DNA of 62,446 nt, counting the filler, from Sluysia triapertura (Eukaryota): NCBI GenBank assembly GCA_046118255.1. It is 5 parts of 5 records of this genome, joined end to end, with 100 filler letters (N's around TTAATTAATTAA, not from the genome) between each part and the next. Parts side by side here need not be neighbours in the genome. Positions count along the whole stretch, not along the records: positions 24,706 to 38,478 come from JBJNIA010020625.1; 4 more parts are not named here. One strand, given 5' to 3'. Below the pieces are notes generated by a model. It made no database searches, had not been told where the DNA came from, and worked only from the letters and a program-made list of their open reading frames with translations. Positions 12,786 to 51,151 of this stretch are shown piece by piece (the stretch's first letter is position 1; each line of letters opens with the position of its first letter). Made by a program: the position numbers and the translations under genes.

Positions 12786-12860
12786 CAGGGCTTCTTAAAC
12801 TTTTTTATATAGCGACCCCCTTCAAGCTTAGGAAATTTTAAACGACCCCCTCCTCCATAT
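12786..12860 (+). mobile_element. 5' end of a hAT (Charlie-like) non-autonomous element, truncated by a gap
   Basis: Begins CAGGGCTTCTTAAACTTTTT...GCGACCCCC, similar to Charlie-type MITE ends. It is preceded by ATCTATAC, resembling the NTCTAGAN target preference. Confidence 0.55.
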
Positions 12861-12960
12861 NNNNNNNNNNNNNNNNNNNNNNNNNNNNNNNNNNNNNNNN
12901 NNNNTTAATTAATTAANNNNNNNNNNNNNNNNNNNNNNNNNNNNNNNNNNNNNNNNNNNN

Positions 12961-15900
12961 GGTTTGGATGATTTGTGTGAGAGAGTGTTTTGTTGTGAGA
13001 TTGTGAAGTGATTGGATGATGAGAGAGTATAAAATAAAGATTTTAAAATTTTTACACACAATAACAATAGTAATATCACAATAGTTAATACAGCAGCAAC
13101 GATGTCAACAAATGAAGATCCATGCACAGGGTAACATTTTTAAGTTTTCATTTATTTATTATTTTATTATTTTATTGAAATAATATAATTAATTTTGCTG
13201 TAATTTTGATAATATTTTGTCAATTCTAGTGAAATTTTTTTAAAGTTTTTTAAAGGTGATTTAATAGAAAATACCAACGTAATTTTTATTAGAATAACAT
13301 CTGATATTTATAATTTTAAACGCCCTTTTAGTGAAAAATCCCAACATAATTTTGGTTAAAATAACATTTGATTTTTAGGTATTTAAAAGATATTTTTAGT
13401 AGAAAATCCCTGCACATTTTTTTGTTAAACCAACATTTGATTTTCAGATATTTAAAAGATATTTTTAGTAGAGAATCCCTGCACAATTTTTGTTAAAATA
13501 ACATTTGATTTTCGATATTTGAGAGACATTTATAGAAGAAAATCCCTGTGTAATTTTTGTTAAAGTTGTATTTGATTTTTCTTTTGACATTTTTTAAGGT
13601 ACTTTTTAGAAATATTCCTACACTATTTAACTTATCAAAATACTAAGTGTTTTATCTTTAGAATTTAGTGTCAAGTCTTCCTTGAAAAGTCATTGTTACT
13701 TAACAACTTTATTGTAAACGTGTTCACTTTTATTTCGTTGGCCTAAAATATTTGAATTACATAATTACCATTAGTTCTTTGATATTAATAGTGTCTGTTG
13801 CGTCACTCCTGGTTGTTGTATTTTTTTAAAGAAATTGTAATATTTTCATTATTATTGTAATTGCTATTTTACTTTTACTATTTTAGTTTCATTTTGTGAA
13901 AACTCATATTATTAATAATAATAACAAATTTTATTTTGGTTTTTATTTAATAGCACATTATTGTTTTTGTTTTGATTTAATTGTCAAGAAATTTAAAGTT
14001 GGTATAATAGTTATTGACATAGTTATAAAAGAAGATTACGATAAAATTATACTTGATATACTATCTATTGAAATTAGTAAGGTTTAAAACGATCAAGATA
14101 ATAATAGTGAATCTTAATAATTCATAAGTTTTAAAGACGCAACATTAATATTATCTGAAAATAGTATTTTAAACTTTCTAGATATTGATAATTTTTTTGC
14201 ATCATCTCTGGTTTCTTTGGATAGATTGTTGTGTCCTTAATATTATTATAAACATTATTGTTAATCTTGTAATTTTAGTCGTTTTTATTATTGTTAAGTG
14301 GAGACTTATAATAGCAAATTGTATTTGATTTTTGTAATCATGAAATTATTGAGTTGTTATTAATTTGATTTAAAAACTTAATCTTTAGGCTAAATAAATA
14401 TTATCAAAATGAAAAAACTAATAATTTATACTTGATATAGTAACGAAATTATTGAGGTTTTGTTTAAGTTAATTAAATTGATATTGATTTATCTTTAATA
14501 ATTTTCAAAGACGCAACAATATTTACAAGCTCAATTTTCGGAGATCAATTTTTATAGCCAGTATCATACCGAAAATTTTAAATACTTAATCTTTAATATT
14601 AGTGACAAAATTCGATTTTAGACTTGGCTTGGCAATATTAATTTTATTTTAGCTTTGATTATTTTTATATTAATTTTTTTAAAATGTTTCATAAATATTT
14701 TATCGTAAATCGCAAAATAAAAAACATAGATCATAATGAGTTAATGATATTTTAACATTTTATAATAAACATAAATTTCTACATCCATTTATTGTTTTAT
14801 TAAATTATGAAAATTATAGAAAATGTAAATCCTGATAAAAATTTATAAAAAAATAAAATCAACTTAATAATTGTTTTAGGATTAGAAATTAAACTATCTC
14901 ATAATTTTTGTTATGTTACATTTGATTAAATTAATTATACTTGTTTTAAATCATTTTTAACCAGTAATTTTTCGCATGATATTTGCATAGGAGCGGCTAT
15001 CACTTATAATAAAATACAAATATGAACACCAAGATAGTTCGATAATAACAATAAACCAATATCAATTTAATTTAGTTAAATAAAATCTCAAATGATTTCC
15101 ACATTTCCTAGATCAAGTATAATTTATCACAAATTTTCTTATTTATTCAACCAAAATATTATGTTCTTAATTCAAATTAATAACAATAAGTAAATAATAT
15201 AATAATTACAAAATCAAATACAAGTCGTTATTATAAGTTTTCGCTTTAATAATAATACAAGTAAACTAAATGAAAAATAACTAAATTTCAAAGTTAATAA
15301 AATTTATGACAATATATGACCAAAAAAATATATCCAAAGAAACCAGAGGTGACGCAACAAATAACAAGAATTAAAATATCAATATCTAAAAAAATGAAAT
15401 CAATAATAATATTTATATCTTGTCTAATAACTCTATTCTAACTTAATAACCAAAACTCTAAAATAATTTGCATGAAGTCTCCCAAAATTCAATTAAAATC
15501 AATAGCTTAAAAGTTGAAATTAAATTAAGATAATAATTAACTTAAAATATATAACTTAAAATATTTCATACTAATTCGGGTAGAAAGCCTCCCAAAAAAT
15601 TCAAATTTATCAATGGCTAAAACTTTCCAAAAAATTATTTTTAATTAAAATCATATAAAATAAAAAAACCTTACCTTAATCATGAATTTTTTTTTGTCTC
15701 TCGTGATTGTTATCCTTTTTTGTTGTGAGTTAAATTTTTAAGTATTCACTTTTAAACCTCTGCAGCGTCCAAACTCACAATCAGGAATTACTCTTACACA
15801 AATCATCAAAGCCTCTTTTCAAGGTTAAAACGACTTTGACATTTATATGGTATGGCCTGTCAAGCGAAATATAAAAATTCGAATAACAGTCAACTCTGAT

Positions 15901-17371
15901 TTTTCTTCTACTCTACTCGATCTATTTTGATTGTTCTGTTTGTTAGTTTGTTCTCATTCCCAAACTAACATTTTCACAGACATTTAAACCTCATTTTCGG
16001 ATTCTCCTACCTCATAGTAATCACTCCATATCCAATTCATCACCGAGTTCATGCAAAGAAATCTTTAATATTGAGCAAAGTCAAGTATTAATTAATTCTT
16101 AATTATGGAAAGTTGAATTTTTTATACTTAGAATGATGTAAATGTAATGAATTGAATATGAGATGGTTGCTATGAGAGAGTAGAATCTAGAAGTGAGTTT
16201 GAAATGTTTGTAGAATGGATTCTTTGAATTAAGAACCTTAAACATTTTCATTAGAAAATTTGGTGCGAAAAATCGAAAATCAATTGAATTCTAACGACTG
16301 AAAATAAATTTATTATTTTTATATTTGTTAATAATATTGTTGATTGTTATTTTTATGTGAGAAGTTTTAAGTAAAATAGATTGAATAGAGTAAAAGAAAA
16401 TAACGGTTGAGATGTTTTGTACCTAATGAATTTGACAGACCGTATCATGTAATTGTGAAAGTTGTTATTGTCGGTCTAATTCTCAAAGAGGTTTTGATGA
16501 TTTGTGTGAGAAAGTGTTTGATTGTGAAACTCAGGATTGATTGGATGATGAGAGAGTATGAAATGAAAAAACAATCACACAATCACACAGTCGGCTAACG
16601 GAGAAATGTTGCGAAGATCCATGATTATGGTAAATTTTTTGTTATTACTTTGTTATTATTATATTGTTATTAATAATAATTTTTTTGGAGATTTTTATTC
16701 AGTTTAGTTAATTTAAAATTCTTTTTTATTTAATTTTTTTCTTAAGGAATTTTAAATATTTAATTCTTATTTGTCAATTTAGCATTTATTAAATAGATAT
16801 TATTTAATTTTTGGGAGACTTCCTTCCCAATTTATTGTGAAGAATTTCAAATATTAAATTATTATTTTTCAATTCAGCTATTATTAAATAGATTTTATTT
16901 AATTTTGGAGACTCCTTGCCAATTTTATCTTATAGTTTTTATGGTTATTGAGATAGAATAGATTAGAATTGTTTGAAAGTATATAAATATTATTATTTTT
17001 AAAATTTTAATTTTTGTTGCGTCAACCCTGGCTTTTTTGGACAAATTATTGTATGCTAAACATTGTTATAAAAGTTGTTGATTTTCTTTTAATTTTAATA
17101 ATTTTTAGATAATTCACTCATATTTTTGTTAAAGCAGAGTTTTACTTCAATAAATCGATTTTGATTTGGTAATTATTATAACATTGAGTTTTTTTATTGA
17201 TTTGAAATGAGGAACATAACTTCTGTTGGGGTTGAATAAATACCATAATTAAATTAATAGAATTTGAGATAATTTGTACTTAATTTAGTTAGTATTGAAA
17301 ATATTAAGATTCCATTTAAGTAAATTAAACTGATTTTGATGTATCGTCATTATAATTTCGAAGACGCAACA
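12961..17371. repeat. Three diverged copies of a ~1.0-1.5 kb repeat in alternating orientation: 12961-14520 (+), ~15040-16060 (-), ~16130-17371 (+)
   Basis: Shared motifs GATGATTTGTGT(G/A)AGA, GATTGGATGATGAGAGAGTAT, GAAGATCCATG, TGTTGCGTCA..C.CTGG and AAGACGCAACA, read on the appropriate strands. Confidence 0.7.
13260..13625 (+). repeat. ~60-bp degenerate minisatellite (TTTTTAGTAGAAAATCCCTGCACA...AACATTTGATTTT), about 6 units
   Basis: GAAAATCCC and AACATTTGATTTT recur at roughly 60-bp period. Confidence 0.75.
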
Positions 17372-21140: not shown

Positions 21141-22121
21141 TTTATCTTCACAAATAGTACCTATGTAAGATCGATTTTTTACAATATGCCTCTAAAACCT
21201 TTCTAACTAAGGAATTGTGACATGTTTTGATTCTTTATAATTAGAGATAATTAGTTGATTTAAACTTTCATTTATAGCACATGGAAGATTTATTGATAAA
21301 TGAATAACATTCATGATTATATCATCACAACTTCTATAAAATCGGTCTAATCTAGTTGTTGAATTGTTATTATTTTGATTACATGGATGTATTTTATTTT
21401 TTCGATTTTTGGATTCTCGAGGTATACTGCATTTTTACCTCTATTTTTCTTTTAAGCCTTTTTATTTCTATCTATTTTTAAACGTACAATAACTATAATT
21501 CTAACACTTAGATATCTGTTAACTGAGTATATATGTTTAGTGTACTTTTCAGTCTTATTAACTATTGTTGAGTAATTAGCAACGATTGGGCATCCAATCA
21601 GAAGAACAAATGTATGTAACAAAAATAGTCATTATTGGATGTCCAATTAACTGGCACATATACATATGAAACTTGCGCGTAGTAACCACCACTAAAATAT
21701 GCCATTTAATGACAGATGATAATTAAAAAGTTTGTATTAAATAATAATGATGGTAATAAATATGATAATAATAATGATAATAAAAATGACTACAATAATA
21801 ATAAAAATTATAATAAAATAAATAAATAAAATAATAATAATATAAAATTATAAAAAGATATAAAGCAAAAATTAAAAAACGCATAAACCTTATCTTTTCT
21901 TTCATAACACAATCTTTTAATTCTAGATAAATGGAATTCTTTTTCTTGAGATAAAATTAAGTAAATCTTTATTTTCTTAAAACATATAAAATTACTTTAA
22001 GAAAATTTTATTTGGATTACAATGGCCTTAATGTTTTGCAAATATGTTAAAGAATGAGTGTGAAAGAATTGTGAACTTGGGATGTTTTGGATTAATTTTA
22101 CATTTATCTTTGATAACTTAA

Positions 22122-22220
22122 GTTGTGGATTGTGATTCTAGTGTTGTGGATTGTGATTCTAGTGTTGTGGATTGTGATTCTAGTGTTGTGGATTGTGATT
22201 CTAGTGTTGTGAAATTGTGA
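22122..22220 (+). repeat. 21-bp tandem repeat GTTGTGGATTGTGATTCTAGT x4 plus a partial unit
   Basis: Four perfect copies, with no spacers. Confidence 0.95.
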
Positions 22221-23242
22221 ATTAAAAAATGTTTTAAAGGAAATTTTAAATGCACATCAATGGTCTGAATGTAAGTATAATTTTAATGACATAAGATTGT
22301 GAATTTAAAATGTAAAAATGTTTTAATGGATCTGAAAAAAATAGAATGTAAAATGTAAGAAAATGTGATATTTCATGTGAAGTGGTATTTTGAATTTTAA
22401 GTGTAAAGATTGGCCACCACAATAAGCGATTCTCCTGTGGAAAAATTTGTTTTACTTATTCCATGTTTTCTTTATAAATTTGTTTCAACCCCGATTTATT
22501 TAGGGTTAAATTTTAATTTAAAATTCTGAAGCATATAAATTTTAATTTTATATTCTTGATCTTTACTTTCTTATCTCTCATATTTGTCTACAGAATAATT
22601 TATTGCTAGTTTTGTGAATATAAATATCGTTTTTTAATCGAATTTTTTTAAAATTTACTAAAGCTTGTTATCAAAAAATCATTTAACGAATGCACTGAAT
22701 TTAACAATAAAGTAAGTAAATTATCGGTTAGGACTCTCAAAGAATAGAAGATACACTACTAGATAGTTAAATTAATCTTAAGATATCAACTTTAATAGTT
22801 ACAGACGCGTCCACTTTACGTCCTAATGATTTTATTGTAACCAATTTTATTTTGCCGTAAGTTAGGAGTTAGAAAAGCCGCAGCATGATCAGTATGATCC
22901 TTTTCCGCAAATAATTTTTAAATATTCTTTAAATAATTTTTAAACGTCTTACAGCAACTTGTAGTTGGCATTTCTGCAGCTTGATAAGTTAACTATATTC
23001 ACTTAAAAAATACGTTTAGTACGTTCCTAATAAATTTTTAACGAGGGTCTTAACTTTAAATAACACAATAAAGTAAAATTCAATTATTTTTTAATTGTAT
23101 TAATGCAAATGTAAAGGTAGAACAGTGAACAATAAAAATAAAATTAAAACTTGAATATTATTTTATTTTCTTATTTTATTATCTTCTTGGGATATTTAAT
23201 CTGTTTTCTTTAATAATTTAAGTGGAAAATTTCCCCTCATTA

Positions 23243-23625
23243 TATCAGGGTTCTTACAATATTAGAATTAACTTTGATTTTACGTGTATTTTAAGATCTT
23301 GACTTATGAAAAATCAAAATCATCTTAAAATAAACAAAATGCCTTCTCATGGAATAAAATAAAATCTTCTTGTGATTATGTTGTGAATTCCAAGTAGATC
23401 TGATAAAATGTTAAAATGTTGACCAAATTAAAGACGGAGCTTATTATTTTCAAAATGGCGATTATCATTAAACTAATGCTAGTTTACAAACTAATCATCA
23501 ACCAATGAAAATTGATGAAATGTTCTAAAAGTGAATTTTCTTTTTTAGATAATAAACAACTTTTAATTGTTTTAGACATTTAAAGCATTTTATGTAATTT
23601 TTAGGGTTGTGATGACAACCTAACA
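23243..23625 (-). mobile_element. Solo-LTR-like element (TGTTAGG...CCTGATA), 383 bp
   Basis: Reverse-complement homologue of 2400-2965. Near-inverted termini. The flanks ATTA/ATAA could be a mutated 4-bp TSD. Confidence 0.55.
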
Positions 23626-24989
23626 ATAACATAAAACACACAATACATTAGGTCAAAAATCCTACTAATTTAATTTGATTAATTTTTTCTTTATATAAAT
23701 CAATTGAAATTATCAAAAGCCGTCATCATCTTTCTTCAATCTAAACTAATTTTGCTTGATTAATTATTAATTGTAATTTTTTCACTTTTCCATATGAAAT
23801 GGAGTACAATAAACCATTATTAATGAATGAACAATTACTTTAGCTGTTTCTTTATTAATAAATTTTCTAATATGTGATATTTTATTTAAATGATATTTAC
23901 ACTTTTTAACAATGCAATTTACATTTTCTTCTATGTTCATTTTAGAATCTATATAACAGCCTATATTTTATAATTTTTGCTTCTCATCCAGAGTCTTACC
24001 ACCTACAATTAATTTTATTTTTATTAATTGCTTTATTTTGTTTCATTTATTTTGGTATTGTATGCGTCGCTGTTATCCTATGAAATCGGAGCAAAAGTGA
24101 AAATAACTTTTATTAATGTGATTTCGACTACGATATACAGTTTATACCTTAGAAGACATGTAACATGCAAAAGAAATATAACCTTCAAAATATTTTTAGT
24201 AATTCATTATTTCTAATTTTTTAAACTAACTTTCTTGTTAAGTGAAGATTATAATTACGAATACTTCATAACTTTATTTTCTATTAACTATATGGGGTTG
24301 AAGGATGACTTTGTTTGCAATTTACAATGATGTAAAATGTTTAGAAGAGTAATTGAGGGCGTGTATTGTTATATAATAGCCGAATGTGTTGAAGAATTTT
24401 AGTCCTATTAACACAATGAACGGAGTTTATATACTTAAATAATTTAAAGTTACACACTGGACAAATTGGGCCATTCATAAGCTTAAATAATAAAGTTTTA
24501 TTTTTGATGATTATATGATCGCCAATAGAATGCATTTCATATTGCGAAAACTTAATTAAAATTTCATAGTTTTTGTATGTTAATTCTTTTATGGTAGAAA
24601 AGTGTNNNNNNNNNNNNNNNNNNNNNNNNNNNNNNNNNNNNNNNNNNNNTTAATTAATTAANNNNNNNNNNNNNNNNNNNNNNNNNNNNNNNNNNNNNNN
24701 NNNNNGTTTTATTATTTTCTCATTAAATTATGTTATTAAATTGTATATTAGTCATCAAGCAATCAAAATCAAGGATGTTCAGAAATTTTGATTTCTTGAT
24801 TTGGAAAATATTATTTTCTATTTTGAAAAATATGTTCAGTGTATGATTGAAATATTATTCTTTATTATTCTAGAAACTTAAACAAATCTTTAGCATAAAC
24901 ATGGGTATTAAGGACCTTTAATCTATTAAAATTAGACTCATAAACAAAACGATAATATTTTAACTGATTTATTATATAATACAACAAAA

Positions 24990-25857: not shown

Positions 25858-26054
25858 TTTATAAGATCAATAAAATTTTTTTAAATTAAATGAATTACTT
25901 AAACAAAACAAAGTAAAATGAATTAATTATTCTTTTTACTCTATCAACATTTTTGTGCATCTATTTTTTATTTTACATAGACTAACTTTACTGTACAATT
26001 ATATTTATATTATATTATATTTAAAATTATATTTATATTATATTATATTTAAAA

Positions 26055-26363
26055 ATGCCTGTTATATTTTATAAATTTAAGACAAACTCTAAGACAACTC
26101 TAAAACAATTTAAGGAATTAATTGGCAACAATGTTTTAGATTTTGAAGCGAAGTGTGTTTTATCGAGAGTACAAAAACACACTTCAAATCCACTCGCCAT
26201 TTTGCATTCAAATGAATTTAGTAATTTTAAAGAAAATAAACATAGTAAAGATCTGTCTATGATGAAAGAGAAATTGAGTCATTTGCGCGATTATATGAAG
26301 TGTATCAAGTGTAAAAATAATTTCTGTTTTATGTGCATAGATAACTTTGATAATATTAAGTGA
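26055..26363 (+). CDS. Short ORF ending in an IBR/RING2-like Cys motif; possibly a pseudogene
   Basis: MKCIKCKNNFCFMC resembles the C-x2-C-x3-F-C-x2-C half of IBR zinc fingers. Confidence 0.3.
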   Translation: MPVIFYKFKTNSKTTLKQFKELIGNNVLDFEAKCVLSRVQKHTSNPLAILHSNEFSNFKENKHSKDLSMMKEKLSHLRDYMKCIKCKNNFCFMCIDNFDNIK

Positions 26364-26928
26364 ACCACTACACTTTGTATATGTACTTATATATATTCTG
26401 AAATAATATGTTCATTTTTATATTTTTAATAAATTATTAGTTTTAGATGTTGTTTAATTAAATTGAGTAGATTAATAGAAGAAATTTGCAGTTTCGATTG
26501 TTATTTCTGCATGATTTATATCATTTAACTATTTGTACACAATCCTATTAAAACAAGCCTTATTTAAAATCAAAATAAGCGATATTGTTAACACGTTAAG
26601 ATAAATACACTCATGAGTTTCTTTTAAAGCAGTACCGTAAGTATATATTCACATTTACAAACATAAGTTATAATAGGAGTATCCTACAACAGAAACTATT
26701 AAAAATTAATAATTATTTTATAATTCATTATTTTATAATTCATAATTATAAATTTCGTTGTTTTTATTGAAACTGTTTTTATTTATTTCTAAAAACTTCA
26801 AAATTATGGAATATTTGTGATTTTATTACAAATAAATTATTGATATAATCTAAATTTATTATCATTATTATTATTATTAATGTTATTTATATTATTAAAA
26901 TAATAATTATATTTATTGCAAAATTTAG

Positions 26929-27336
26929 CATTTCCATCTTCTCCAAATTTATTTCATTCACAAACTATCAAAACCAATAATTATATTCGAGAAATCCTAA
27001 AAATAATTACCAACAAAAAATTACTTCTTTCTGTTTCTGACTCCGATTCTTCTAGAAGTTTGATTTTAGTTTGCCAAAGTTCACATGGTTACCCAATACC
27101 AGAATTTCAATGGTTTATTAACAATATTCTTTATCACAGTTCACCAGGTGCATTAGCGGATCGTCAACAAGCTTTATACGAATCGCACATACAAATTAAT
27201 TATCAGAATTTAACTGATGGATTAATTATTGAATGCCGTGTCAAAAATGGTGCTTTTAATATAAATAAAAAATCATTCTTTAATTCTGATGATAACAGGA
27301 ATTATTTATCTGAATTTGTAACAATTATGTTTGAAA
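26929..27336 (+). CDS. Internal exon encoding an immunoglobulin C2-type (CD80/nephrin-like) domain of an unidentified cell-surface protein
   Basis: LILVCQSSHGYPIPEFQWF...LIIECRVKN has the Ig Cys, G-x-P-x-P, Trp and C-x-V-x-N pattern. The acceptor TTTAG| and donor |GTTAGT are both phase 1, typical of Ig exons. Confidence 0.7.
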
Positions 27337-28175
27337 GTTAGTTGCTTATTAAATTTCAATACTATTTTAATAATATCTTATTTTAATAATAATAATAATA
27401 ATAATAATTTATTCATTGTCTAATTTTTCCCTTAATCAATTTCCAAAATAAGATATCATTTAATTTACTTTTATATAAAGGACAGTTAATAAAAGTAGTT
27501 AGAAGATTAATTATACATTACTATATTTAGTATAAAACGATATATACAGAAAAATTCATAAGAAAATATTATTAATAACAATAATAACCGTAAAAAGATT
27601 TAAATTAGCATTAACTTGTGTTCATTCAATTTGTGTTAAAGAAATTCAATTTTGAAATAGTTGTAGTACGAGATACACAATCTTATAATCTAAATACAAG
27701 ATTTAACAAATTGTTTAATATGTTTAGATATGTATTTCTGTGTAAATAAGTTTTAATATTTATATTAAACATTTTATTCCAAACAAAATAGTAATAATGA
27801 TAATAGTAATTTATTAGTATATTCTTTATAGTTTGATAATTCCTAATCTCTCACCATAATAAATTACTTCATTGACATGGTTCAATATCATATTTACTTA
27901 ATATATACTCTAAGAATTTTATTTCACTTTTGGAATATACATATTTCTTTTATTTATGATTTCAAAAAAAATGAAAATATTTCAAGAAAATGTGCGAATA
28001 AAACGATTTAAAATAAGTGAGTCCACTTACTAACTTAATGGCCAACCGTTGGATTTGTAATCAATGGTCAAAAAATTTATTTTAATTTAATTCAATAGTT
28101 TATTAATTCAATATTTTATAAGGAGGTTTTTTGAAGATTTTAGGTAATTTAAGTAATTTAAATAATATAATTTGA

Positions 28176-28291
28176 TGATTTTAATACGATTCGATTATAC
28201 GAACCTTTTAGTATGATTTTAATAAGATTCGATTATACGAACCTGTGGATTAATTTTTGATTTTGATTAGATTCTTTATATAGAACCTGTG
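28176..28291 (+). repeat. ~38-bp tandem repeat (GATTTTAATA.GATTCGATTATACGAACCT) x3
   Basis: Two near-identical units and one degenerate unit. Confidence 0.75.
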
Positions 28292-29241
28292 TCTAATTTA
28301 GGTATTTTAATGAATAATTATGACGAAAAAACTTTATATTTTTCACAGATATACAATAGATTAGGTACAAAATTCTAATATATATAAAAAATTCAAATAT
28401 AATATTTATAATATGTTGAAATTGATTATTTTTATGAATAATCTAAAGTAATAAATTTTGACAGTTATTTTAATCTGCTATCAGGAAACGATAGCTAAAA
28501 TTTAAATTGATTTTAAGTAAGATTTTAGATACGCAATATGAAAAATTGCAATAAACTTAAAATGAAAAACTAACGAATATAAAAAATATAGAACGATCCA
28601 AAGTAATTGTAGAATGCCATAGAACTTTAATCTTTCCAGATAAAAATCACTGTTGAAGTGCGAGGATTGGTAAAGAACTGCTGTGGAAAACTTTTAAAAA
28701 TATTTGTAAAACGAAATTTTGTGCAAAAACTTTGTGTGAGATGTCTAAAATAGTTAAAGCTTTTATATGTGATTGAATGACCTTGATGATGTTTTAAACA
28801 ATAAAATTTTTTAAACAATTAAAACAATAAATTTAGTTATAATAATAAAATAATGATTTTAATGATTTTCAAAATAATAATTTAATAAAATAAAATAATA
28901 TCAACAATGATTTCCAAAATAATTAAAACAAAATAATATCAACCTGATTAATTTTCCAGAACGACAAATATATTCCTTTGAATAAATTTAATACATAGAT
29001 CCTTTTGAATCATATTTTATTAAAATTACAAATAAATCCTTTATAAATTCCAAATATTATTAAATCTAATTATTTTAATATATTTACATTTAGTGTCTAA
29101 TCATTTTACTATATATTGATTATTATTTTAATATATATTGATTATTTACATTTAGTGCTTGATATAAACTTTGATACTAGACCTTGATATAAACAAACTT
29201 TAATACTTTACATTTACCTTCCCCTAATAGAAAATTAGTCT

Positions 29242-30993
29242 CTAATTTAAGTTTTTCTTACGGAACAAAAGTAATTTATCGTAATCATCATCAAATGTTA
29301 AATACTCGTCGTCGTTCAGGTCAATATAATCTAAGTTGTCAATAATTGAATCAATGTTATCAAAGTTCTCGTCATAGTGTTCATCGGAGTTCTCATCGTA
29401 ATCTTCATCGTCCAGATCGACTGGGGATGAGGTTGTATATTTTGCCTTCTTATTTTGTGATGAATATGTATTTGGTGATGTGGATCGCCATGCTGTTGTA
29501 GGTTGTTGTTTGATTCTTTCGATACCGTTGCTGATTGATGCTTTTTATTTTGTTGTGCTGATGTTGCTGTCGTTGCTTGATGGTTATTACTTTTTTGTGA
29601 TGAAGTCACTGTTGAATGATGTTCTTTACCTTTTTGTAATGAAGTCTCTGTTGTCGATTGATGTTCTTTACCTTTTCGTGATGAAGTTGCTGTTGTATGA
29701 TGTTCAATATGTATTGTATTTTTATTATGTATGTTGCTTGCATAAGGTATGGGAGTGCTAAAATTATATTTATTGCAACTGTTACTGAGGCAGCACCCTC
29801 TATGTATTAAAGACAAGTCAGCAGATATAGAAGGTGAAGAACAGCGAGATTCATGTTTGTCATTATTACTGTCTGTTTTTGTATCAGAAGTAGTAGTATA
29901 AGATAAAGAATTAGTGTTTTCACGATTCTGCTGTAAAAACATTGGGTCCCTTTTTATTAAAAAATCATATAAATTTATAAATTCCTTGACCAACTGTTGG
30001 CAGGAAGTTTTTGGTGGGAACGGGTATAGTAAGTTTAACACCCTTCTAGTTTTTGTAATAGGATTTAGGGAGGTTTGGGATATTAAATTTGTGCAGTTTA
30101 GATTAATTACCCCCTTTAACCAACCATAGGGAACCTGTAGGGTTTTAATTATCAGTTCTGGGTACGTTGACACCAGAATTTTATCATACAATGCCGCTAG
30201 CCAGAAGTCCCTTATATCTGAAAGGTCCTTGGCGTTATTGAGATGGTCCTCTTTCAGACCATGATCCACTGTCAAAAAATTTTTTATACGAATGCGGGGT
30301 CTTAAAAGCGCCTCTCCATGGAATAACTTATGATAAGGCATAAAACACATTCGGAGAATGTGGTGCCTATCATCAAAACCTAATGCAAATTGGGCGGAAA
30401 TGAATATGAAGTCCCACACACGACATTGGTGTTTCTGAGTCGTGTGAATAAGTCAAACCCTCCTGTCAGTTATACATATTCATCTTATCCTCATGATATA
30501 TTAGCGGACGTTTTTTAAAGTCAATAGCTTTCTCTGTTTGGGCCAGGAGTACCGCAAAAGTTGCAGGTAACTCTGTTGTCTCTATGCGGATGGTGCAAGA
30601 TGAGCTGTGGTTAGATATTAATACCGAAGAGTATCCCTGTATTCTTGATAACAATGGGATGCCTTCTATGGTGATTATTACCTTAAGTGTGCCCCTAGCG
30701 GCCGCAATAATTATTGGTCTGTTATTAAATGAAAATCCCCTTAACTGATTTACGCATACGTGCGATTGAATATGGTCTATTTTAAATAAATGTGTGATGA
30801 ACTTATCGTCCAATTCACACTTTAAAATGTTAGGGGTAGTATTCGAATTTATAAAGTGACAGGGTGTTTGGTTGTTACCGCAGAATCGGTCAATCCCGTT
30901 GTAGAAAGATATAATATTATTTATGACGCGTGCTTGTGTTCTTTGTTGTGACGTATTGTTATTTGGTGGTATGTTGGTATTTGTTTGAGACAA
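29242..30993 (-). pseudogene. Frameshifted intronless gene: unknown N-terminal domain, DEDDh (REXO4/ISG20-like) exonuclease-fold domain lacking catalytic residues, low-complexity linker, acidic tail
   Basis: RPRIRIKNFLTVDHGLKEDHLNNAKDLSDIRDFWLAALYDKILV aligns by eye with the REXO4-type KPxxxVxDYRTxVSGIxxEHLxxxxxxxxVQxxVxxLLxGRILVGH. The ExoI DxE position reads SAQ. ORFs 30466-30993 and 29331-30419, plus the acidic frame ending at 29242, are collinear with the paralogue at 35750-36999. Confidence 0.6.
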
Positions 30994-31127
30994 TCGTTAT
31001 TTATTCTGAATAATAGTAAAGGTGTGAAGACTTTTAAGGATCGAAAGTATTTTATCTTTAGTTTTTTATGTATTGATTTATTTAAATACCCTATATATTT
31101 TATGAAAATAAAAAAAAATTAAATGAC

Positions 31128-31592
31128 CTAAAAAGAATAATTATATTTCTTTTTTAAGAAAGGATTTTCCACTTTACTTTTTTCGTACAATCCTACCTTC
31201 TTATACAGACGACGTATCTGTCTACGACGTCGATTATGCCTCTGGGATTTGTTCAAACCAGGAGGATAATTTGAAGGAGGTATTGGTATTTTATGTGTAT
31301 TAGCCTTTTTTCTTAACATTGGGTTATGTATGATAACCTCCTGCACCTGAATATGCTGATCGTGCAGATAATGAGGTATCCTCTCTAATAAGTATGAATA
31401 TTGGAATAATCCTTTATAATATGTGTGAACTTCTACTGATGTTCTACACATTGGGCAACTCATAAAATCTGTGGTAGTGTGATGGAAAAGAGTAAGAATG
31501 CACTTAAAATGAAATTTGTGTGAGCATGGGTATGTATTTATGTAGTGTTTGTGAATTGAGTGCTGACAAATTGGGCAGCGATGAAAATACAT
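31128..31592 (-). CDS. RING-H2 (C3H2C3) zinc-finger protein with a basic C-terminus, intronless
   Basis: CPIC...PCSHKFHFKC...CPMCR, followed by RHNRRRRQIRRLYKK (NLS-like). Intact ATG-to-stop ORF of 154 aa. Confidence 0.8.
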   Translation of the reverse strand: MYFHRCPICQHSIHKHYINTYPCSHKFHFKCILTLFHHTTTDFMSCPMCRTSVEVHTYYKGLFQYSYLLERIPHYLHDQHIQVQEVIIHNPMLRKKANTHKIPIPPSNYPPGLNKSQRHNRRRRQIRRLYKKVGLYEKSKVENPFLKKKYNYSF

Positions 31593-33783
31593 ATTCTAAA
31601 AATGAAAAATTACGTATTCTAAAAAATGAAAAACAAAAATATAATATAGCAATAATATTTTAGTTAATTAATTAATTAGCAAAGTGATATAGTTATAAAC
31701 CTAGTAATGTACAATGCTATAGTGCTATGAAAAGTAGTAAACAGTATTAATAAGTTAGGTGACCTGCTGGACAGAACATAACCGTCGACAGCTATCACTC
31801 GTAACTTTTTATATATGCTGTTTAATCCTATACTTTAATTCTATGTCACTACTCTTAAAAAGGTTTGCAAACATTTCTTAAGAAAGTTATGTATGAAGAT
31901 TACTAACTAATTAAAATAGTTATCGTTAGTTATCAAACTAACAATATTAAAAAGAAATAGTCGGTGCTGTTGAAAATTGAAAATTCTCCAAAAATGTATT
32001 AATTTCTCTTTTCCAAGATAGATTAGCTTATCCAAAGATTTGAAGAGCAACTTTTGCGTGTAAGATTTGAAAATAACTTGTGTATTACTTTTGAAACATG
32101 TGACTTTATTTATATATTTCTTAATGACCTTGACTTATAAATTTTAAGTATTTAAAGAAAAGAAAATTTTGTTTAGAATTTATTATTTTATTTCTTAATA
32201 ATTCTTTTTAATAACGATAATAATAACAAAAAATCGATTATAATTTTATAAATTATTTTTAGGTACAATATATTTGCACACATTGACATTCATTAACATA
32301 ATGTATTTTATTATTAAATTTATTTTTAGGTACACACAACATAAAATTATTAAATTTGTTTTTAGAAACGTAAGATGTTTGTTTAAGTTATTATTTTTGA
32401 CATTGACGATACAATAATAATTAAACAATAAGTTGTAAATATCCCAATTCAAACAAATATAAACATTTATATAAACGTCCACAATAAAAACAAATTTTGT
32501 ATAAACGTTCTTACACTTGTCATAAAATAAAAGGAATGATACAACAATTATTGTTATCGATTTCAGTTCAATATTATAATAATATTAAATTAATTATTAT
32601 CAATTTTATTAAATCGATACGTGTATAAAGTTTTTAAATTAATTTATGTTATTTTTGATTGTCTAAAATTTGTCTAAATATAACTAAATGAAAAGAGTTA
32701 AGTATAAATTTAACTATCTTTATTAAAATGATAATAATAATAACTAAATTAATTTTAAACTAACGACGATGATATAAAGAATAATCAGAAATTTTTCTGA
32801 GGAAATATATATAATAATAAATTTGAATTTTATCAAAAGTTTGGAACCAAATTGTAGTGAACTCCAATTCTATACATCACAAACACATTTCATACTCATA
32901 AATTGAATGCTAAACAAGTTACTCAGTTCATTCAAAATATAAACGCAGGCATAATGCATAATTATCATAAGTTATGTTTAGTATTACAATAATTTCTATG
33001 GCTACATAATGATCACTCTCAGCGCAATAATAATTATTAACATTATCATACTAAACTGCGTAATAATTCTTTTTATTATCGTTATCATTATAATTTTTAT
33101 TATTGTCTCAATTGTTTTCCTCTTTTATCCTCTCCTTTTTGTATGTCTTAGTTTCTTTACTGCATGTGTATGGTATATTTACATTCAACATTTCAATGTC
33201 AAGAGTTATTTAATTTTGTCAATTATCATCAATTATTTTTTAAAGGATATTGATATTATTTGCTATTTTTTGTATGTTAAATGAATTTATTTTTAATTCA
33301 TTATTTGCCAATGCTCAATGATGTGTTTGTTAGAAAGTTACCCGATCCGCATATTAATTCACTATTTATTGTGAGTATTTTTCTAAAAACAATTAAATGT
33401 AAATGTGCTCATTTATATGAGGAAATGAATTAATATGTATGCTATTATGAATAGCTATTAATGTGAATAGCAACTATCTTAACTATTAATAAATATTTTC
33501 AATTTTTATGAAAAAGAATTTGAAAACATTTACAAAAATCTTTCGAAAAGAACCCTTTAGAACGAATCTGAAATTATAAAACAAAATAATAATTAGAAAT
33601 TAATATTACAGATTTTATTTGGTAACAAAATTTTAGTGTAAAATTATACTATAAATGAGCACTTCATGGTTAATTGGCTTCTGCATGATCATAGTATTAA
33701 TACGTCGTTCTATTAGTAATGTATATCAAGTAAAAAAGTAACGAAACAAGTTTATACGATACATTTACATTAAGATTGCATAG

Positions 33784-34026
33784 TTATTTAATGCATTAAA
33801 CTGTTATATAAACGCATCTGATGGGAAAAGATTATTCATAAACATCATTAAATACGAATCTAATTGTTCTAATAACAGAATACAATATTTAACATTGACA
33901 GGTAAGTCAATTTTATGTGATTTAGATAATGATTTATTTGATGAATATGAAAGAACCAATTATATTAATAGTAATGCATCGTATGAAAGTACAAACATGT
34001 CCTATATTTTAATACTGATTGATACA

Positions 34027-34030
<4 letters not shown>
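33784..34030 (+). CDS. Possible CUB-domain-like exon or fragment
   Basis: NCYINASDGKRLFINIIKYESNCSNNRIQYLTLT weakly resembles the CUB pattern C-x-(W/Y)-x-I-x-A-x2-G-x-R-I. A GTAAG donor lies at 33902. Confidence 0.25.

Positions 34031-34058
<28 letters not shown>
34029..34058. repeat. (AT)n microsatellite
   Basis: Direct inspection. Confidence 0.95.
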
Positions 34059-34061
<3 letters not shown>

Positions 34062-35749
34062 ATTCTTATCGTGTTATTTTTGTTTTATAATGTAAAATTA
34101 ATCTTCTTTGGGGTTAAATTGTTAGTGTGAAAAATTTTCTTTGTTTAAAAGGGCCGAAATTGTTTACTAATTCGGTTAATTCTAATAAATTTAAATTAAA
34201 TGATTTAAAAATTTACAAAGTAACTGACTTAATATTTGTTGACATTAATTCTATAAACAAATATTGAATGATATACAGCGATTAAAGTGTTCACAATCAA
34301 AAATATTTTAAAATAACTTGTCCAAAAGTTTTTTTCAAAATTATTCAAAGAAATAATTTAGCTATTCAACACTTATAAAATTCTGTTTTTTTATACTGTT
34401 ATGTCTATACTTGATATACTAATTTATGTCACCAAGTCATTGACTTTAACTTAAACTAAAGTACAACACCTATTTAGCGGTTCACTTTAAATAATAATAA
34501 TAATAATAATAACTGTTTTATTATATTGATTCGTTTTTTACAAATTTTATAATTAAAATATTACATAATATTTTTAAATTACTTAATGTTAAATTATACT
34601 AAATTATAAATTACATAATATTTTTATTAATACTATTCACATATAACCAAATTATGCTTTTACATTATCATTGTGGATTTAAATATAAAGAACTCACTTT
34701 GCTCATTGTTTCCAAGAAATAATTTAAAATCATTGTCCTAATTGTGAATTCTATTTTTGTTATTCATGGCCAGAATGAATATTACAAGTTAGAAATTTAC
34801 GATTTTCCGAATTGAAAGGATCAATTAACCAATACTTAGTCTTTATAGCGAAATCTCGAACAGAATTTTCCTGAATGAAACAACGAATGTTCTTGAATCG
34901 AGTATGAACTACAATGTTCCTCTCGAAGAGAATAAACTTAACGAGAGTTTAACTTTAAAGTTGTTTTTACAATTTTAGAGCTATTTATGTCAGTTAGAAT
35001 AACTAAGATATTCTACGACATAATAAAATTTTCCTTTTTATTACAATATTAATGAAAAATAAAATTTACATTATTAGCTTTTTATTATGATTTTATTATC
35101 TAAATTTATTGCTACTCATTTCTTTTAAATTAAAAAACATTTATAAGTTCCCTATATTCATTAAAATATTTACACCTTTACAATAGAGAGAAATAATACG
35201 ATATTAAAATTTAAAAGCATTATGATAGACAAAAATTATTCTAAATTGAAATATAATAATCATTAAAAATACATTGTAATTTATTAAACTAAATTAATAT
35301 ATTAAATTAATAAACTAAATTTATTAAACTGAATATTAATATTATATTCAGATTGGGCACTATGACAAATTTAAAGATGCGCAAAATTCAAAAGTTAAGT
35401 TAAATATTACGCGGTACCTGACGGTACTAATCTTAAAGTATTAAACTAACGGTAAACGTTAAACTTTTAAAAATTGAAATTGTGTAAACTTGAGAAAATT
35501 ACTATTGTAAATTGTGTGTTAAAATCATTATCTGAAATATTGTTCTGGAAATGACCTTGATGAAATAATTTAGTTAAACAAAATTTAATAATTTACAAAA
35601 ATTAAAATAATAAAATATCTTACATTCAAATAAAATCCGAATTAACATGATAAAAATTTCAATAGAATTAATATCAAAATAATCAATAAATATTAGATAT
35701 TATAAAATACACTATATTCTTAAATACATTCATGACATGCCGGAACAAC

Positions 35750-36999
35750 AAAATTAGTCTCTAATTTTAAAAATATCAAAAAGTCAATAAAATTATTCAC
35801 GCAAAAAATTGTCCATTCTCTAGTTTGGCACTCAGTTAACCATTCTTTCGGGTCTTCGTCTTACTCTTCCGCATCATCTAGATCTACAGAAGGTTCTGTT
35901 CTTTTTTCTTCGTAGTTTCGCCATCAATTTGTCATTATGTGATATGTTCAATTTACTTTTTTGCTTTTGTGTAGTATTGGAGTTGCAAAGTTAAATGGGT
36001 TTTTATTATTTGTGCAGGATATGTTTTGTGTAAGATCTTGTGATGAAAAAGATGATGAAGGTATAAGACTTTCTATTTTAGTATTACTGGTAAAGCTTAC
36101 CGTCTTTCGCACTTTGGATGTTAAATACAGATATCGAGTCCTTAGCGTGATGTTCGCAAGTAAAATATTTATGAGGGAAACTGTATAACAATTGCAAAAC
36201 CCTCCCAGCCCTACTAACAGGACTTAGTGCGAATGAAAATTAAGGTTGATCACATCTAACCAATCATACGGAATCTTAAATCTGGATAGAAATATACCAG
36301 AACTTTGTTATACAAAGAGCCAAGCCAAAAGTTTCTTATATCGTCAATATCTTTGGCGTTTCTTAAATTTTCCTCTTTTAGCCCATGGTCAACAGTCAAA
36401 AAATTCTTAATTTTTGATCATTGGGCGGATTGACTCAGTTGAATGAAATGCTTGATGATAAAGCATTAATCAAATGCTTATTATTTGGTGTCTGTCAAAG
36501 CCCAGAACTAATTGCGCGGATGCGAATATCAAATTAGTTTTTATAACAAAGAGATCTCAAGTGTGTAAGTGAAAGTCACACGTACTTTCCTTTTGTACAA
36601 AAATCTAAATCAGATGTATATAAAAGTGGATGTTTCTTTGTATCTGACTTTTCTCCTGAGCAAATAAGACAGCAAAAGTTGAAGGTAATTCATTTCCATC
36701 TACATAAATTCCGCATTTATTCGAAGCAATTGTGATATACAGAAAAGAAAAGCTCTTTAATTGCACTTGTAATGGAGTAAAATCTATATTCATGGTAATT
36801 CTAAGATTCTCCCTAACCGCTGCTCTTAACCTATTGTTATCGGGTATCTTTTGAGTGTATTGACCACCAATGGTGGTCCTAAGTTACTTATAAGAAAAAT
36901 GTGAGTGTTTTGTGTCGTGTTAAATTTGGAAAATGTGATGTGCGTGTCATTTTGACCACAGAATCGGTAAATACCGTTATAGAATGCGGATATCTTCAT
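35750..36999 (-). pseudogene. Second, more decayed paralogue of the DEDDh-like gene at 29242-30993
   Basis: Collinear matches: FYNGIYRFCG/FYNGIDRFCG, ELPSTFAVLFAQ/ELPATFAVLLAQ, FASAQLVLGFD/FISAQFALGFD, IKNFLTVDHGLKEENLRNAKDIDDIRNFWL, NFATPI/NFSTPI, VDLDD, and the 3' motif AAATTAGTCTCTAATTT. Confidence 0.75.
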
Positions 37000-38578
37000 G
37001 ATTTGACATTTTCTAAATAAAATTATACATTTTATAAGAAAAAAGAAAAGATTATACAACATGGTTTAAAAGAAAAAATGTATATAAAATGATTTAATCG
37101 TTAGTTTATTTAATATTCTTCTTAATTTAATTATGAGATAGCTTATATAATTTAGGAATACTTTCTGTCTTATTGTAATAACAGGTTAAAATACGTAGGA
37201 TCCCAATTAAATAGGATCTTCATAAATGAATTTTAATTTTAAACTAACAAAATACGAATAATTTTGAATTTGTAACTATGTAATTTTAATACTGTCGTAC
37301 GAATTAATTTAATCAACCACGAAAACAATTTAATAACTTATATTAAGACAAATTATACCAAACTTTTAAAATTACATATAATAAGGATATATAAATTTTT
37401 CAAAAATTAAGAACTTTGAAGTAATTAATATTTAGATAGAAATTCAATTTTGGATTAATTTTACTTCAACCCTTTAAACTTAACTAAATGAAAGGATTTT
37501 AAGTGAAAATTTACATCAACTTAAAGTGAATTAACTAACGGATTATTTATGTCAGCACAGAGGATTATTTGTTTCCACTGAAAATTCTAGATATTTGTTC
37601 TCGCTACCACAATAAAAATTTTATGTTGTGTTATTATATTATGTGAATTTTTATGAAATGTTGCGTATTTATATATGTTTTAGGTCAAGGCCATTATATT
37701 TGATTTGTTTTAAACAAAGTCAAAGTAATCTGTTTTGTTATTAAAATAATCGGTTTGAATGAATTAAATTAATGTTTAAATTAAAAAAATTATTGATTAA
37801 AACAAAAATACACACAATAAATCAATAGTTTACAAAAATAAAATTAATATATTAATTATAAAAGTAGAATTGTAGTTAAAAAATAAATAATGGAATTGTA
37901 TGTAAAATTAGTTATATAATATTGTATATAATATTATTATATGTAATAATAATAATGTATGTAATATTAGTTATAAAAATAGAAGTCTATAATATGTTTG
38001 TTGACAGAGAAATAAAATAATGTCTTTATGAAACGAGTGGAGTGTTGAAAACAAACCAAAATAAAGTTTCACCAAATACTGAAATAATTATATACGATTC
38101 GTAAAAGTAAAATATTGATGTGGTTTTATAGTCTTATCATAATTGATTTGTAACATAATATACATTTGTAAATATATTCTGCAAAATTTAAAACTATCTA
38201 AATACTTAAAGATTATGTTTTGAATTAATTTAAAATAAGTTTTAATATAGTTAATATAAATTCAAAATTTAGTAACCAGTTTTAAATTGAAATTAAATAA
38301 ATAATCATTTTAAGTTAAAACTATGTTAAACTGAGATTGAATAAAACTTAATTAAAAATTAGTAACATTATTCTCGAATAAAATTAACTTAAACTAAAGA
38401 TTTGTTGGGATTGCCCAACTTTGGATTAAGAGACGAGTAAAAGACATAGAATTACAAATGAAGGAAGAATTAATGAGANNNNNNNNNNNNNNNNNNNNNN
38501 NNNNNNNNNNNNNNNNNNNNNNTTAATTAATTAANNNNNNNNNNNNNNNNNNNNNNNNNNNNNNNNNNNNNNNNNNNN

Positions 38579-38805
38579 ATTTGACACATAAAATGGCTTT
38601 CAAAGTTTCAACACTTAATTTTGATTTTTCTGATGTCCACACTTGATTTACTGTAAAAAAACGCAAAACAAATTGAAGGATTCTTAGAACGCAAAACAAT
38701 GATTTTCATAAATAAAAAATTTAACTTAATTCCAAAGTCGGAACTTTTGAAAATCGTCACGGGACGCGGGACAAATTGGGAAAAGCGGGACGTCTGGTCA
38801 CCTTA
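38579..38805 (+). mobile_element. Terminus of a hAT-Tip100-like MITE; the other end is in the gap
   Basis: Ends CGGGACGTCTGGTCACCTTA (reverse complement TAAGGTGACCAGACGTCCCG) with repeated CGGGAC subterminal motifs, matching Tip100-type TAGGGTGACCAGA ends. Confidence 0.65.
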
Positions 38806-42940: not shown

Positions 42941-45900
42941 CAGTTGTTAGAGGTAATATTAAAGCTAACAATTTAAACACTGATACCATGAAATTGCTAA
43001 ATCTTCTTATTTTATTGAACTTTTGAATGTTAATTAAAAGTGTTTTTACTTTTGTCTTTCAGTTTCAGGTTAAGCGTGTGTAATAATTCTCAAGTATTAA
43101 TTCATACATAACAAATAAAAAGTTAGACGCCTAAACAGACATATTTAGTAGTTGGCAATTTTCTGGTACTATCACGAAATATTTTTACTTTCATTTGGTA
43201 GTTATTAGAAAAATATCAGATAAACCACACAAACCTTATATTGTATAAAATGTGCAAAACCAAAAAAGATAATTATTTTATTTATTTCACAATAGCTGTT
43301 ATAAAATCTAACATTAAATTTATTATTATTAAATTAAATATTATTTGACTTTCTTTAGATATTTTACATAAAAATTAGAATGCAAATAAAAAATTTGCAA
43401 TACATTCGAAATTAGAAATAAAATTATTGTTTTAAATAATTCATTTATTGAATGAGACAACAATGACGCCACCGAAATTTTCACGACCCATACGTTGACC
43501 TATTGTGTAATCTAAATAAAGGATATTCCGTTTATTTATTCTTAAGCAAAATAATAATAAATTCTGTTTATATAGTATATTTAGACATTACATATTACAA
43601 GGAAGATGTATATGTTCGGTCTAATTAGTGTTACATTTGTTTACGTGGCACTTTTTTATATTATTTAACAATTTAAATATATATTGTAATTATGAATTTA
43701 TTAAAACTATATCACCATCATTTGTTATTTACAATGGCTTTGAATTGTGTTTAATTGATCACGATAGGAACCACTTTTTTTGTTTTTTATTTGTTGGTTC
43801 ATGTAACTATCGTAAGTAATTTTTTTATTACGAATTCATAAATTGTGTTGTTGATCTTTAAAAATTTATATAGGCTTTATTATTGAGAAACTTAATCAAT
43901 ATTATCATCAGCTAAAATTAGTTGTAACACATTTAGATGAAATAGATTTTAAATTAGCAAACAATTATGTAGAAAATTCTAAATTAGTTAATTTAGTTTC
44001 TTTTTATTGGAAAGTATCTTGATGCAGTACCAATTGAATTAGATCAGCGATAGCAGTAAGAATTTAAAAAATTATGACAAGCACCATGTTTTGAAATAGT
44101 TACTTAATCAGTTTACTAATTTGAGTATAAATTGTATACATTTTAAAAATTTCACTGTACATTTTTGTACATTAATTATTGATATATTTTATAAAATTCA
44201 AATGAGTCTGAATACTGTTTTATATTTTATAGATTTTATATATGCTTGTAATGAACTCTTGATCTCTGGTAATCTAAACTTTAAAAATATTCTTTAAATT
44301 TGACTAGAGGTACCATCTTTGTTTATGTAAATTTTTTTAATAATGAGCTCTGTAAGTAATATCTATTCTTCCTTTATCTGGAAGTAATAATTCGAATACT
44401 CGAAAAAAATACTTAAAACTTTTTACTCCAAAGTTTTTTATTTAGGTTTCTATTGTATTCCTGATTTTTTGTAATAAAATGTTCCGTCCTAGTCACGACT
44501 ATCACTCAATTTAATTTTACTGGTTCTAATATCAACTCCTTTACTTTAGTAAAATAATATAATAAATGACACTAAAAATTTATTAAATCAATTTTAAATT
44601 AATACAAAATATTATAAATTTATTATTATTTTAATCATCTAAGACTCTATTAACCTTTGAGTATTCTGGAAACCTTGATAAGCATCTAAGATCTTCGAGT
44701 AATATTAGATTGGTATATCCTTGAGACTATTATAAACGTTATTGTTAATCTCGTTATTTTAATCATTTTTAGTACTGCTTAATAGCGATTTATAATAATA
44801 CTAATTTGTAATTGATTTTTATTTAACCAGTAAATTATTGTGTTATTGATTTTATTTCCAAAAGCTTAATTTTGGGTGAATAATTATATATATTAAATAA
44901 GAGAATTATTTGATCTAGTGAATACTTGAGATTCTTTTTAAACTACTGGAATTAATATTGATTTATTATAGTTAATAATTTTTAAAGACGCAATAATAAT
45001 TTTTTGATCGGATAATTTTGTAATCATTTTTAAAATGCATAATTCATTTATGTGGATCATTATTCTAATTTAACGTCAAGTAAACCATAATAAAATATTT
45101 TAAACAAATAAAAATAAACAATTTGTTAATGAATAATAGTCGTAATGTTTTTAATAAAGATGTTTAAAAAATCTGAGTACTTATGTCTTATTTCAGTGGA
45201 ATAATATAAAGTTTCAACAAATGCAACATATCATTAAGCATACATAAATTATTTAAAATGTTTATTATTTATATGAATTATATATAAATTCTCGCATTTT
45301 TGGTAACGTTTGAATTATAGATTTAATGTTTTCTATGACACGAAACGTTCACAATATTACGTTTTTCAAATATTAACAAATTTTAATTCATTAATGTTGT
45401 GTTTAAATTTGAAACTCTATTCTTAATTGTTTAACATTACTTATGAATGTTAAGTTTAATTAATTTTCAAGTTTCGGATTACATTTTTAATTACGATCTT
45501 TTTACAGGATTACTCATAGCTAATTGATCATTAATTTCAAATAAATGAGCATCATTAACATCATTTTGATCTGAGAATTAAAACAAGGTATTCCATAATA
45601 TACTTCGTTTCTTGTCATTTTTGACGACGTAAAAAGCCACTAATATCATTTATACGCATATAACACAAGTTAGGATTAATTATTGGTTAATCCAAGCTAA
45701 TATTTTGAAACTTCAGTTGAATTTGACAAATGTCAGTTTCAGGTACCCACACTAATACAATAATATTAATCACACTGACGTTAATAGTAATAATGATAAT
45801 AGTACTAATAATAATTCTGGTGGTGATCGTAATGGCAATTATAACAATGCCAGTAATAATTTGGTCTGAATGTTTTAAATTTGGAGATTAATAAGATATG

Positions 45901-50568: not shown

Positions 50569-51151
50569 GTAAGTTGTTTGTTTTAAAATGTGTCATTTTT
50601 TCATGTTAATTTTATATTGATTATATTTTAAAAGAAACATTAACATTTTATAATCGCTTTAGATANNNNNNNNNNNNNNNNNNNNNNNNNNNNNNNNNNN
50701 NNNNNNNNNTTAATTAATTAANNNNNNNNNNNNNNNNNNNNNNNNNNNNNNNNNNNNNNNNNNNNTAATAATAATAACAATAATATATTTCTTAATATTA
50801 ATATTAAACATGTATTATACGAAACTAATACAAATATAATGTATTATTAAACAAATTGATTAACAGTACCAAAATCGAAATTAAGTATAATTTATCTAAA
50901 GTTTTATTGGAAAATATTTTTCTATGTAAAAGTTAATTATAACTTATTTGTTGAAATTAATTATATTTTTTAAAAGCATAATATCTTTGACGAATCAGTT
51001 TCAATACTAAAGAGATCAAACATTTTCAATTAATTTTAATTGAATATCAAACCCTGTTTCATAAAATATTGGCTCCTAATTAGATAAATTATACTTAATA
51101 GAAACTTAAATATTAAGAATATTCATATAGTTTAAAACATGCTAAATACTT

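Follow-up and report, generated by a model that had tools for sequence, protein, structure and literature searches.

A repeated RING-H2 and dead DEDDh-like nuclease gene pair in Sluysia triapertura, possibly accessory cargo of an unclassified DNA transposon

In the passages of the cited sources that concern accessory genes, KolobokD transposons carry an accessory DEDDh exonuclease gene (PMC9587614), P and piggyBac transposons also occur with an accessory DEDDh exonuclease (PMC3627910, citing Kapitonov et al.), and bdelloid LTR retrotransposons and Terminons have a DEDDy ORF3 with spliced messages (PMC5408684, PMC6431247, PMC5718144). Other proteins have the fold without its chemistry. Maelstrom and EXD1 have a DEDD fold without the catalytic acids and are described as nucleic-acid binders (PMC5408684), and PML-PXL, an exonuclease fold without the catalytic residues, is likewise described as a nucleic-acid binder (PMC13659232). 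Maelstrom has the conserved residues EHHCHC (PMC2628886). As far as these passages describe them, the transposon-borne DEDD genes encode active nucleases, and the known dead ones serve the host.

The window, by which we mean the whole stretch of 62,446 nucleotides from Sluysia triapertura that was analysed, contains on its minus strand a block (29242-31592) with a RING-H2 gene followed by a broken second gene in the same orientation, which we call gene 2 (Table 1). This block is a broken copy of a repeated two-gene cassette, and we lean, with modest confidence, towards reading the cassette as accessory cargo of a DNA transposon that is unclassified and would have its transposase elsewhere. The sequence-only reading had described two tightly packed, co-oriented, intron-free genes in a G+C-rich segment, and the packing, orientation and composition all stand: gene 2 starts 131 nt downstream of the RING ORF, and the G+C of the block is 0.349 versus 0.209 and 0.214 in its two flanks, exceeding all 517 other segments of the same size (mean 0.242, sd 0.018, maximum 0.284). 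The absence of introns holds for the coding parts only; an acceptor-like site lies 2-9 nt upstream of the start of each ORF (RING and gene 2), so that splicing of the message within its 5' leader is possible. Five window proteins had no entry in the protein collection searched.

Table 1. Coordinates of the features in and around the block. X1 is a public run of the same organism; copy 2 is a second copy of gene 2.
Feature	Position	Strand	Evidence or remark
Most highly repeated block, promoter-like	31610-31850	-	X1 bin depth 15,192; 54,711 at 31793
TATA-like TATATAAA	31815-31808	-	Upstream of RING
Two tandem splice-acceptor-like sites directly before RING ATG	31595-31635	-	11-12/14 pyrimidines
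RING-H2 (C3H2C3) gene, complete, 154 aa	31592-31128	-	ORF and Pfam
Spacer between RING gene and gene 2, AT-rich, 131 nt	30997-31127	-	Ends in acceptor-like site at 31005
Gene 2 frame pieces	30996-30466, 30452-29331, 29544-29242	-	ORF analysis
N-terminal domain of gene 2	30466-30996	-	E 6e-07 to P0001; ends at in-frame TGA
DEDDh-like pseudo-exonuclease domain	29958-30413	-	Profile alignments; ExoI S-A-Q, ExoII Asp replaced by Ile
H/Q/T/S/K repeats, 42 nt = 14 residues, 3-4 copies	29529-29705	-	
Last frame of gene 2 with acidic tail, 23 D/E in 48 residues	29242-29544	-	
17-nt palindrome at gene 2 end	29232-29248	.	Identical in copy 2, 35751-35767
Second highly repeated block	27978-28431	.	X1 depth 13,386, loose ends at 28025
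Copy 2 of gene 2, older, more decayed, no RING gene	35750-37012	-	66% nt identity
Dispersed repeat families	14193-17353 and 44706-45001; 638-896, 12093-12311, 22028-22372; 2616-2961, 23248-23527		

The rest of the window is made up of short pieces, about the size of exons, that carry domains of animal type (Ig, IBR, CRM1, HAD), and judged from this stretch the host genome is AT-rich and animal-like. An exon of a HAD hydrolase (Hydrolase_6) at 55693-55420 (-) is followed by a 33-nt GT-AG intron, a sign of very short introns in this genome. Close to the cassette on its downstream side, and on the opposite strand, are an IBR-like piece (26025-26363, +) and an Ig-like piece (26907-27341, +). Exportin-1 (CRM1)-like fragments at 3450-5086 (+), broken by a 90-nt/30-nt tandem repeat and a gap, look like a decayed or rearranged copy. 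Short dispersed repeats with 67-87% identity fall into at least three families, and the N-run gaps (12861-12960, 24606-24705, 38479-38578 and 50666-50765) contain a 12-letter all-frame stop linker that gives artefactual repeats. The 9-mer TCAAGGTCA, which we take to be a nuclear-receptor-type site, occurs five times in the window (28778, 32125, 35552, 41395 and 59406); two of these sites are 200-450 nt downstream of the two gene 2 copies and one is upstream of the RING gene.

The zinc ligands of the RING protein (C6, C9, C23, H25, H28, C31, C46 and C49) form a C3H2C3 pattern with RING spacing, and the ORF matches Pfam zf-RING_2 at E 2.1e-07 (31.5 bits versus a cut-off of 27.3). Trp is usual after the sixth RING ligand, and in this ORF the residue at that place is Leu. 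The basic tail of the protein has 10 K/R in 22 residues, and none of five candidate relatives was confirmed. The block at 31610-31850, within which X1 contigs have loose ends at 31840/31844, is a likely promoter, lying upstream of the RING gene and containing the TATA-like sequence. Between it and the ATG, the tandem acceptor-like sites, whose chance occurrence within 20 nt is about 0.01 and which coincide with a 24-nt duplication, are predicted to be either the acceptor of a 5' leader intron or a trans-splice site. In one relative of gene 2 described below (P0007), the extra first residues resemble a translated pyrimidine tract, which would place an acceptor before its ATG, as far as can be told from protein letters.

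Gene 2 spans 30996-29245 (-) and comprises 584 codons in three reading-frame pieces, in line with the roughly 580 codons proposed earlier. The three frameshifts proposed at the same time have to be revised, because the lesions are a missing ATG, an in-frame TGA (30468-30466) and two changes of frame, one near 30430 and the other near 29510. A third frame shift is possible at the very end of the gene, where copy 2 reads on in another frame. The palindrome at this end is kept letter for letter although the two copies of gene 2 are only 66% alike. Introns were tried and rejected as the cause of the breaks: there are 1 and 5 GT-AG candidates (20-130 nt), with weak sites or coding-like G+C (0.34-0.39 for the coding-like ones versus 0.15 in a host intron), and the candidate at the first break would delete residues that are conserved in copy 2. 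Since the bridging candidates are weak and coding-like, we regard the breaks as true lesions.

Relatives of the gene 2 protein are few. A phmmer search of 1.84 billion representatives gave four matches, three of which are true relatives (P0001 at E 2.9e-17, P0002 and P0003), while P0004 (E 5.7e-4), a bacterial CARDB repeat protein, was dropped as a chance match; a profile search added a further cluster, P0005-7. So small a number of relatives among 1.84 billion representatives is the kind of patchy spread that is typical of mobile genes. A word search among proteins of 336-2000 aa confirmed none of 316 candidates, and relatives were absent from scans of viral contigs, metagenome contigs and prokaryote genomes, from a phage search and from PHROGs. 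The relatives sit on contigs of 0.7-2.9 kb. The intact ones, P0001 (365 aa) and P0005-7 (586-612 aa), show 22-29% identity and have a single ORF for the N-domain and the nuclease-like domain, and P0005-7 also have an acidic tail. A profile made from the N-terminal part of the relatives alone ranked the N-domain of the window first among 1801 frames (E 5e-4), and this, together with the one-ORF layout of the relatives, bears out the earlier reconstruction of gene 2 as a single gene. The N-domain itself had no usable ESM Atlas match and no Pfam or PDB match, and it is not a duplicate of the nuclease domain (hhalign probability 0.1). As judged by these searches, gene 2 defines a rare and new protein family that combines a new N-domain with a pseudo-nuclease.

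Homology of the second domain to the RNase T/DnaQ-type DEDDh fold is supported by profile comparison. The family profile matched the PolC exonuclease in the PDB (2p1j, E 1.1e-4), ISG20L2 (7yw5, E 0.008) and SDN1 (E 0.013), in agreement with the REXO4/ISG20-like assignment made before, and an ESM Atlas search of the domain ranked RNase_T clusters first (0.92, 170 shared features). Single-sequence searches of Pfam and the PDB with the exonuclease piece gave no DEDDh match. The DEDDh fold that had been anticipated thus rests on the profile and ESM Atlas matches and not on structure models, which were poor (pLDDT 38 and 34). Their order of strands and helices fits DEDDh, and the low-confidence model compares with ISG20 at Z 3.1 and rmsd 6.9 over 81 aligned residues; Foldseek with these models had no match at E 0.001 in the PDB and viral libraries, which at this confidence is no evidence against the fold.

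Active DEDDh nucleases of the REXO4/ISG20 type need D-x-E, D and H-x4-D. In the alignments, the ExoI site reads S-A-Q where SDN1 has D-C-E, as had been noted from the sequence, and the replacement extends through the family, with S-A-Q in both window copies, A-V-Q in P0001 and A-S-R in P0003 and P0005-7 (P0002 does not cover ExoI). The ExoII Asp is Ile in the first window copy, P0001 and P0002, and Gln in P0003 and P0005-7. No match aligned as far as the ExoIII region, and the family alignment has no conserved His or Asp column there; its only invariant columns are P, R, D, D, V and P. The proposed loss of the catalytic acids is therefore confirmed for ExoI and ExoII in every member that covers those sites, which argues that the dead site is a family trait and not decay, and the loss, common to proteins only 22-36% alike, is old.

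Arenavirus genomes code for a RING protein as well as for a DEDDh domain, and the sixth-ranked ESM Atlas match was an arenavirus nucleoprotein cluster (0.90), so we considered whether the block might be a relic of an arenavirus-like nucleoprotein with its exonuclease domain beside a Z-like RING, copied into DNA and amplified. We think this very improbable, given that this cluster shares 124 of 256 features, fewer than the RNase_T matches do, that none of eight family members matches Pfam Arena_nucleocap or Arena_ncap_C at E 10, that the profile matches are PolC, ISG20L2 and SDN1 and not the nucleoprotein, and that conserved promoter-like DNA lies upstream.

Two findings go beyond the sequence-only reading: the older copy 2 at about 37010-35750, and a high copy number. 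Copy 2 is 6 kb from the block in the same orientation and is single-copy and identical in X1. Its lack of a RING gene means that the link between the two genes, which is present in the block, is not obligatory. X1 matches the unique DNA of the window, copy 2 included, without differences at depth 9-24 (about 13, for the eight long unique contigs listed). Over 29794-32063, in contrast, summed X1 contig depth is 2,195-15,192, compared with a median of 259 and a maximum of 925 in 20 bins outside 27978-32063 and 37966-38400; such a sum of unitig depths does not give a copy number, and even when divided by 31 for overlapping contigs it is still about 5-37 times the unique depth, suggesting tens to hundreds of copies. 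These copies are diverged: among 6,648 placed X1 records, 554, 1171, 2140 and 2783 have a likeness of 99% or more, 95-99%, 90-95% and under 90%, respectively. In the frame of the N-domain, 16 of 21 differences between copies are synonymous versus 22% expected (P 1.5e-7) and 14 of the 21 fall at third positions, these 21 coming from the best-supported 40 of 1,392 differences. Many diverged copies are kept under purifying selection. Relative to the window copy, much of the placed X1 depth has a RING linker of another length with the frame kept, and about four fifths of it differs from the window copy at the tail break, which in so large a share indicates that the tail break is not general to the family. 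Taken together, the depth, the synonymous excess and these variants suggest that the family is alive or recently was, and that the window holds a damaged member.

The second repeated block (27978-28431) contains a 6-bp hairpin (28014-28029) beside T-rich DNA and tandem repeats of 38-44 nt, and on its sequence it is a candidate downstream end; X1 depth between 28432 and 29793 is 501-1274, near background, so this block may instead be a separate repeat. A third highly repeated block, with an X1 depth of 14,622, lies at 37966-38400, next to the gap at 38479; near 38404-38419 there is a 6-bp hairpin. The three depth peaks (31610-31850, 27978-28431 and 37966-38400) are mutually dissimilar. Repetition is higher in the blocks on either side than in the middle, a pattern that would resemble the one left by short derivatives of DNA transposons. 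At the putative ends of the window copy, searches for LTRs, for terminal inverted and subterminal repeats and for a target duplication gave nothing; the two repeated blocks share no direct repeat, and RT is absent from the window. The 141 frames of the window compared with Pfam include no transposase, integrase, polymerase, capsid or other viral core gene. A search for a Helitron-type partner found no G+C-containing 11-14-mer at a plausible end within 28200-38478, and Rfam on 27500-38600 gave three chance matches and no ribozyme. The many copies under purifying selection fit the proposed mobile-element accessory module; the expected termini, target duplication and linked transposase, integrase, polymerase or capsid genes were not found in the window.

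That element ends were not found in the window would also be expected if the cassette were a lineage-specific expansion of host genes by birth and death, such as a defence or effector module that binds RNA and was multiplied through local duplication or retroposition, with both window copies dead. Two copies of different age 6 kb apart in one orientation, the purifying selection between copies, and a TATA-like box and acceptor-like sites such as host genes have are all compatible with this, and vertebrate PML pairs a RING with a pseudo-exonuclease in host defence (PMC13659232). However, the coding parts are intronless and 10-14 points above the flanks in G+C, whereas the host-like hydrolase gene has its 33-nt intron; repetition is higher in the non-coding blocks than in the genes, and relatives are very rare and distant. 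We therefore consider a host expansion unlikely.

Intronless genes of foreign composition that lie close together in one orientation, with copies that diverged under selection as a replicating lineage would, could also be read as pieces of an endogenous DNA virus (or of a large virus-like element such as a Polinton) that integrated repeatedly, with the RING and the dead nuclease as counter-defence genes. Pieces of X2, a run labelled as another organism, are 83-99% alike over the cassette, and none of those listed fall in the unique flanks, which would suit a virus; X2 depth over the cassette is only 0.3-1% of that of X1, as trace carry-over would also give, and the X2 signal fits either its own copies or trace carry-over of DNA from the X1 organism. 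The RING has a weak and generic match to the herpesviral ICP0-type RING (E 0.0017). Against this, the block has no other gene, the window has no viral core gene, and the viral-contig scans, phage search and viral fold search were all empty, so that we regard a viral origin as quite improbable.

Returning to the cassette as transposon cargo, we can outline how it might act. By analogy, gene 2 likely works like the pseudo-nucleases Maelstrom, EXD1 and PML-PXL; PML also has a RING. One upstream promoter would drive a message whose leader is spliced to either ORF. The dead nuclease fold, with its invariant Pro-Arg and a basic strand, might bind transcripts or DNA ends without cutting them, and the acidic tail could contact basic proteins of chromatin or RNPs and so recruit partners. 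The RING protein would reach the nucleus by means of its basic tail, ubiquitinate a host factor and so mark it for removal, and together the two proteins would shield the transcripts and DNA ends of the element from host silencing and degradation. Within the explanation as a whole, such an anti-silencing role is possible but doubtful. If it is true, a dead DEDDh family beside a RING would be a candidate silencing suppressor encoded by an element in animals, and to our knowledge few element-encoded suppressors of silencing are known there. A bolder version, that this is a new kind of invertebrate element or virus in which a RING and an ancient dead DEDDh protein form a counter-silencing pair, found across distant hosts and still moving between species, seems to us unlikely. 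If the copies are instead a host expansion, they would represent a new pseudo-nuclease family of modest interest. The new family has intact natural members that are ready for structure and binding work.

Based on the passages cited above, the cassette resembles KolobokD, P and piggyBac in having a DEDDh-fold gene as non-transposase cargo of a repeated element in invertebrates. The genes of those transposons are TREX-, ERI1- or exuperantia-like and are proposed to degrade DNA ends, whereas the acids have been lost in the cassette, which also differs in its N-domain and RING and in that no transposase, TIR or TTAA duplication was found in the window. Like ORF3 of the bdelloid elements, gene 2 is an accessory ORF with an exonuclease fold, a separate unit with a spliced message (only predicted for the cassette), but ORF3 is described as DEDDy, with intact residues, and tied to RT elements, and neither LTR nor RT was found in the window. 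A hairpin beside T-rich DNA at a candidate downstream end is also a feature of Helitron2/HLE2, in which captured cargo is common (PMC11417382, PMC3627910); unlike these, the cassette shows no short asymmetric paired terminal repeats, and RING and DEDDh are not among the domains named in the section of those sources that was consulted.

In the literature searched, whose scope lay outside Repbase reports, supplements and most subscription papers, we found no account of the gene 2 family or of a cassette of a RING and a dead DEDDh gene. Among proteins with the fold, gene 2 resembles REXO4/ISG20/ISG20L2, SDN1 and PolC in a profile match that runs from ExoI to just past ExoII, and differs from them in that the D and E of ExoI and the D of ExoII are replaced and in its flanking domains. 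Unlike Maelstrom, the family has no conserved Cys/His motif and no Pfam match, and unlike PML-PXL, the RING is in a separate gene and the cassette is multi-copy, not a single host gene. On the residues compared here, gene 2 is neither an active REXO4/ISG20 nuclease nor a Maelstrom protein, and DEDD accessory genes as such are already known in transposons.
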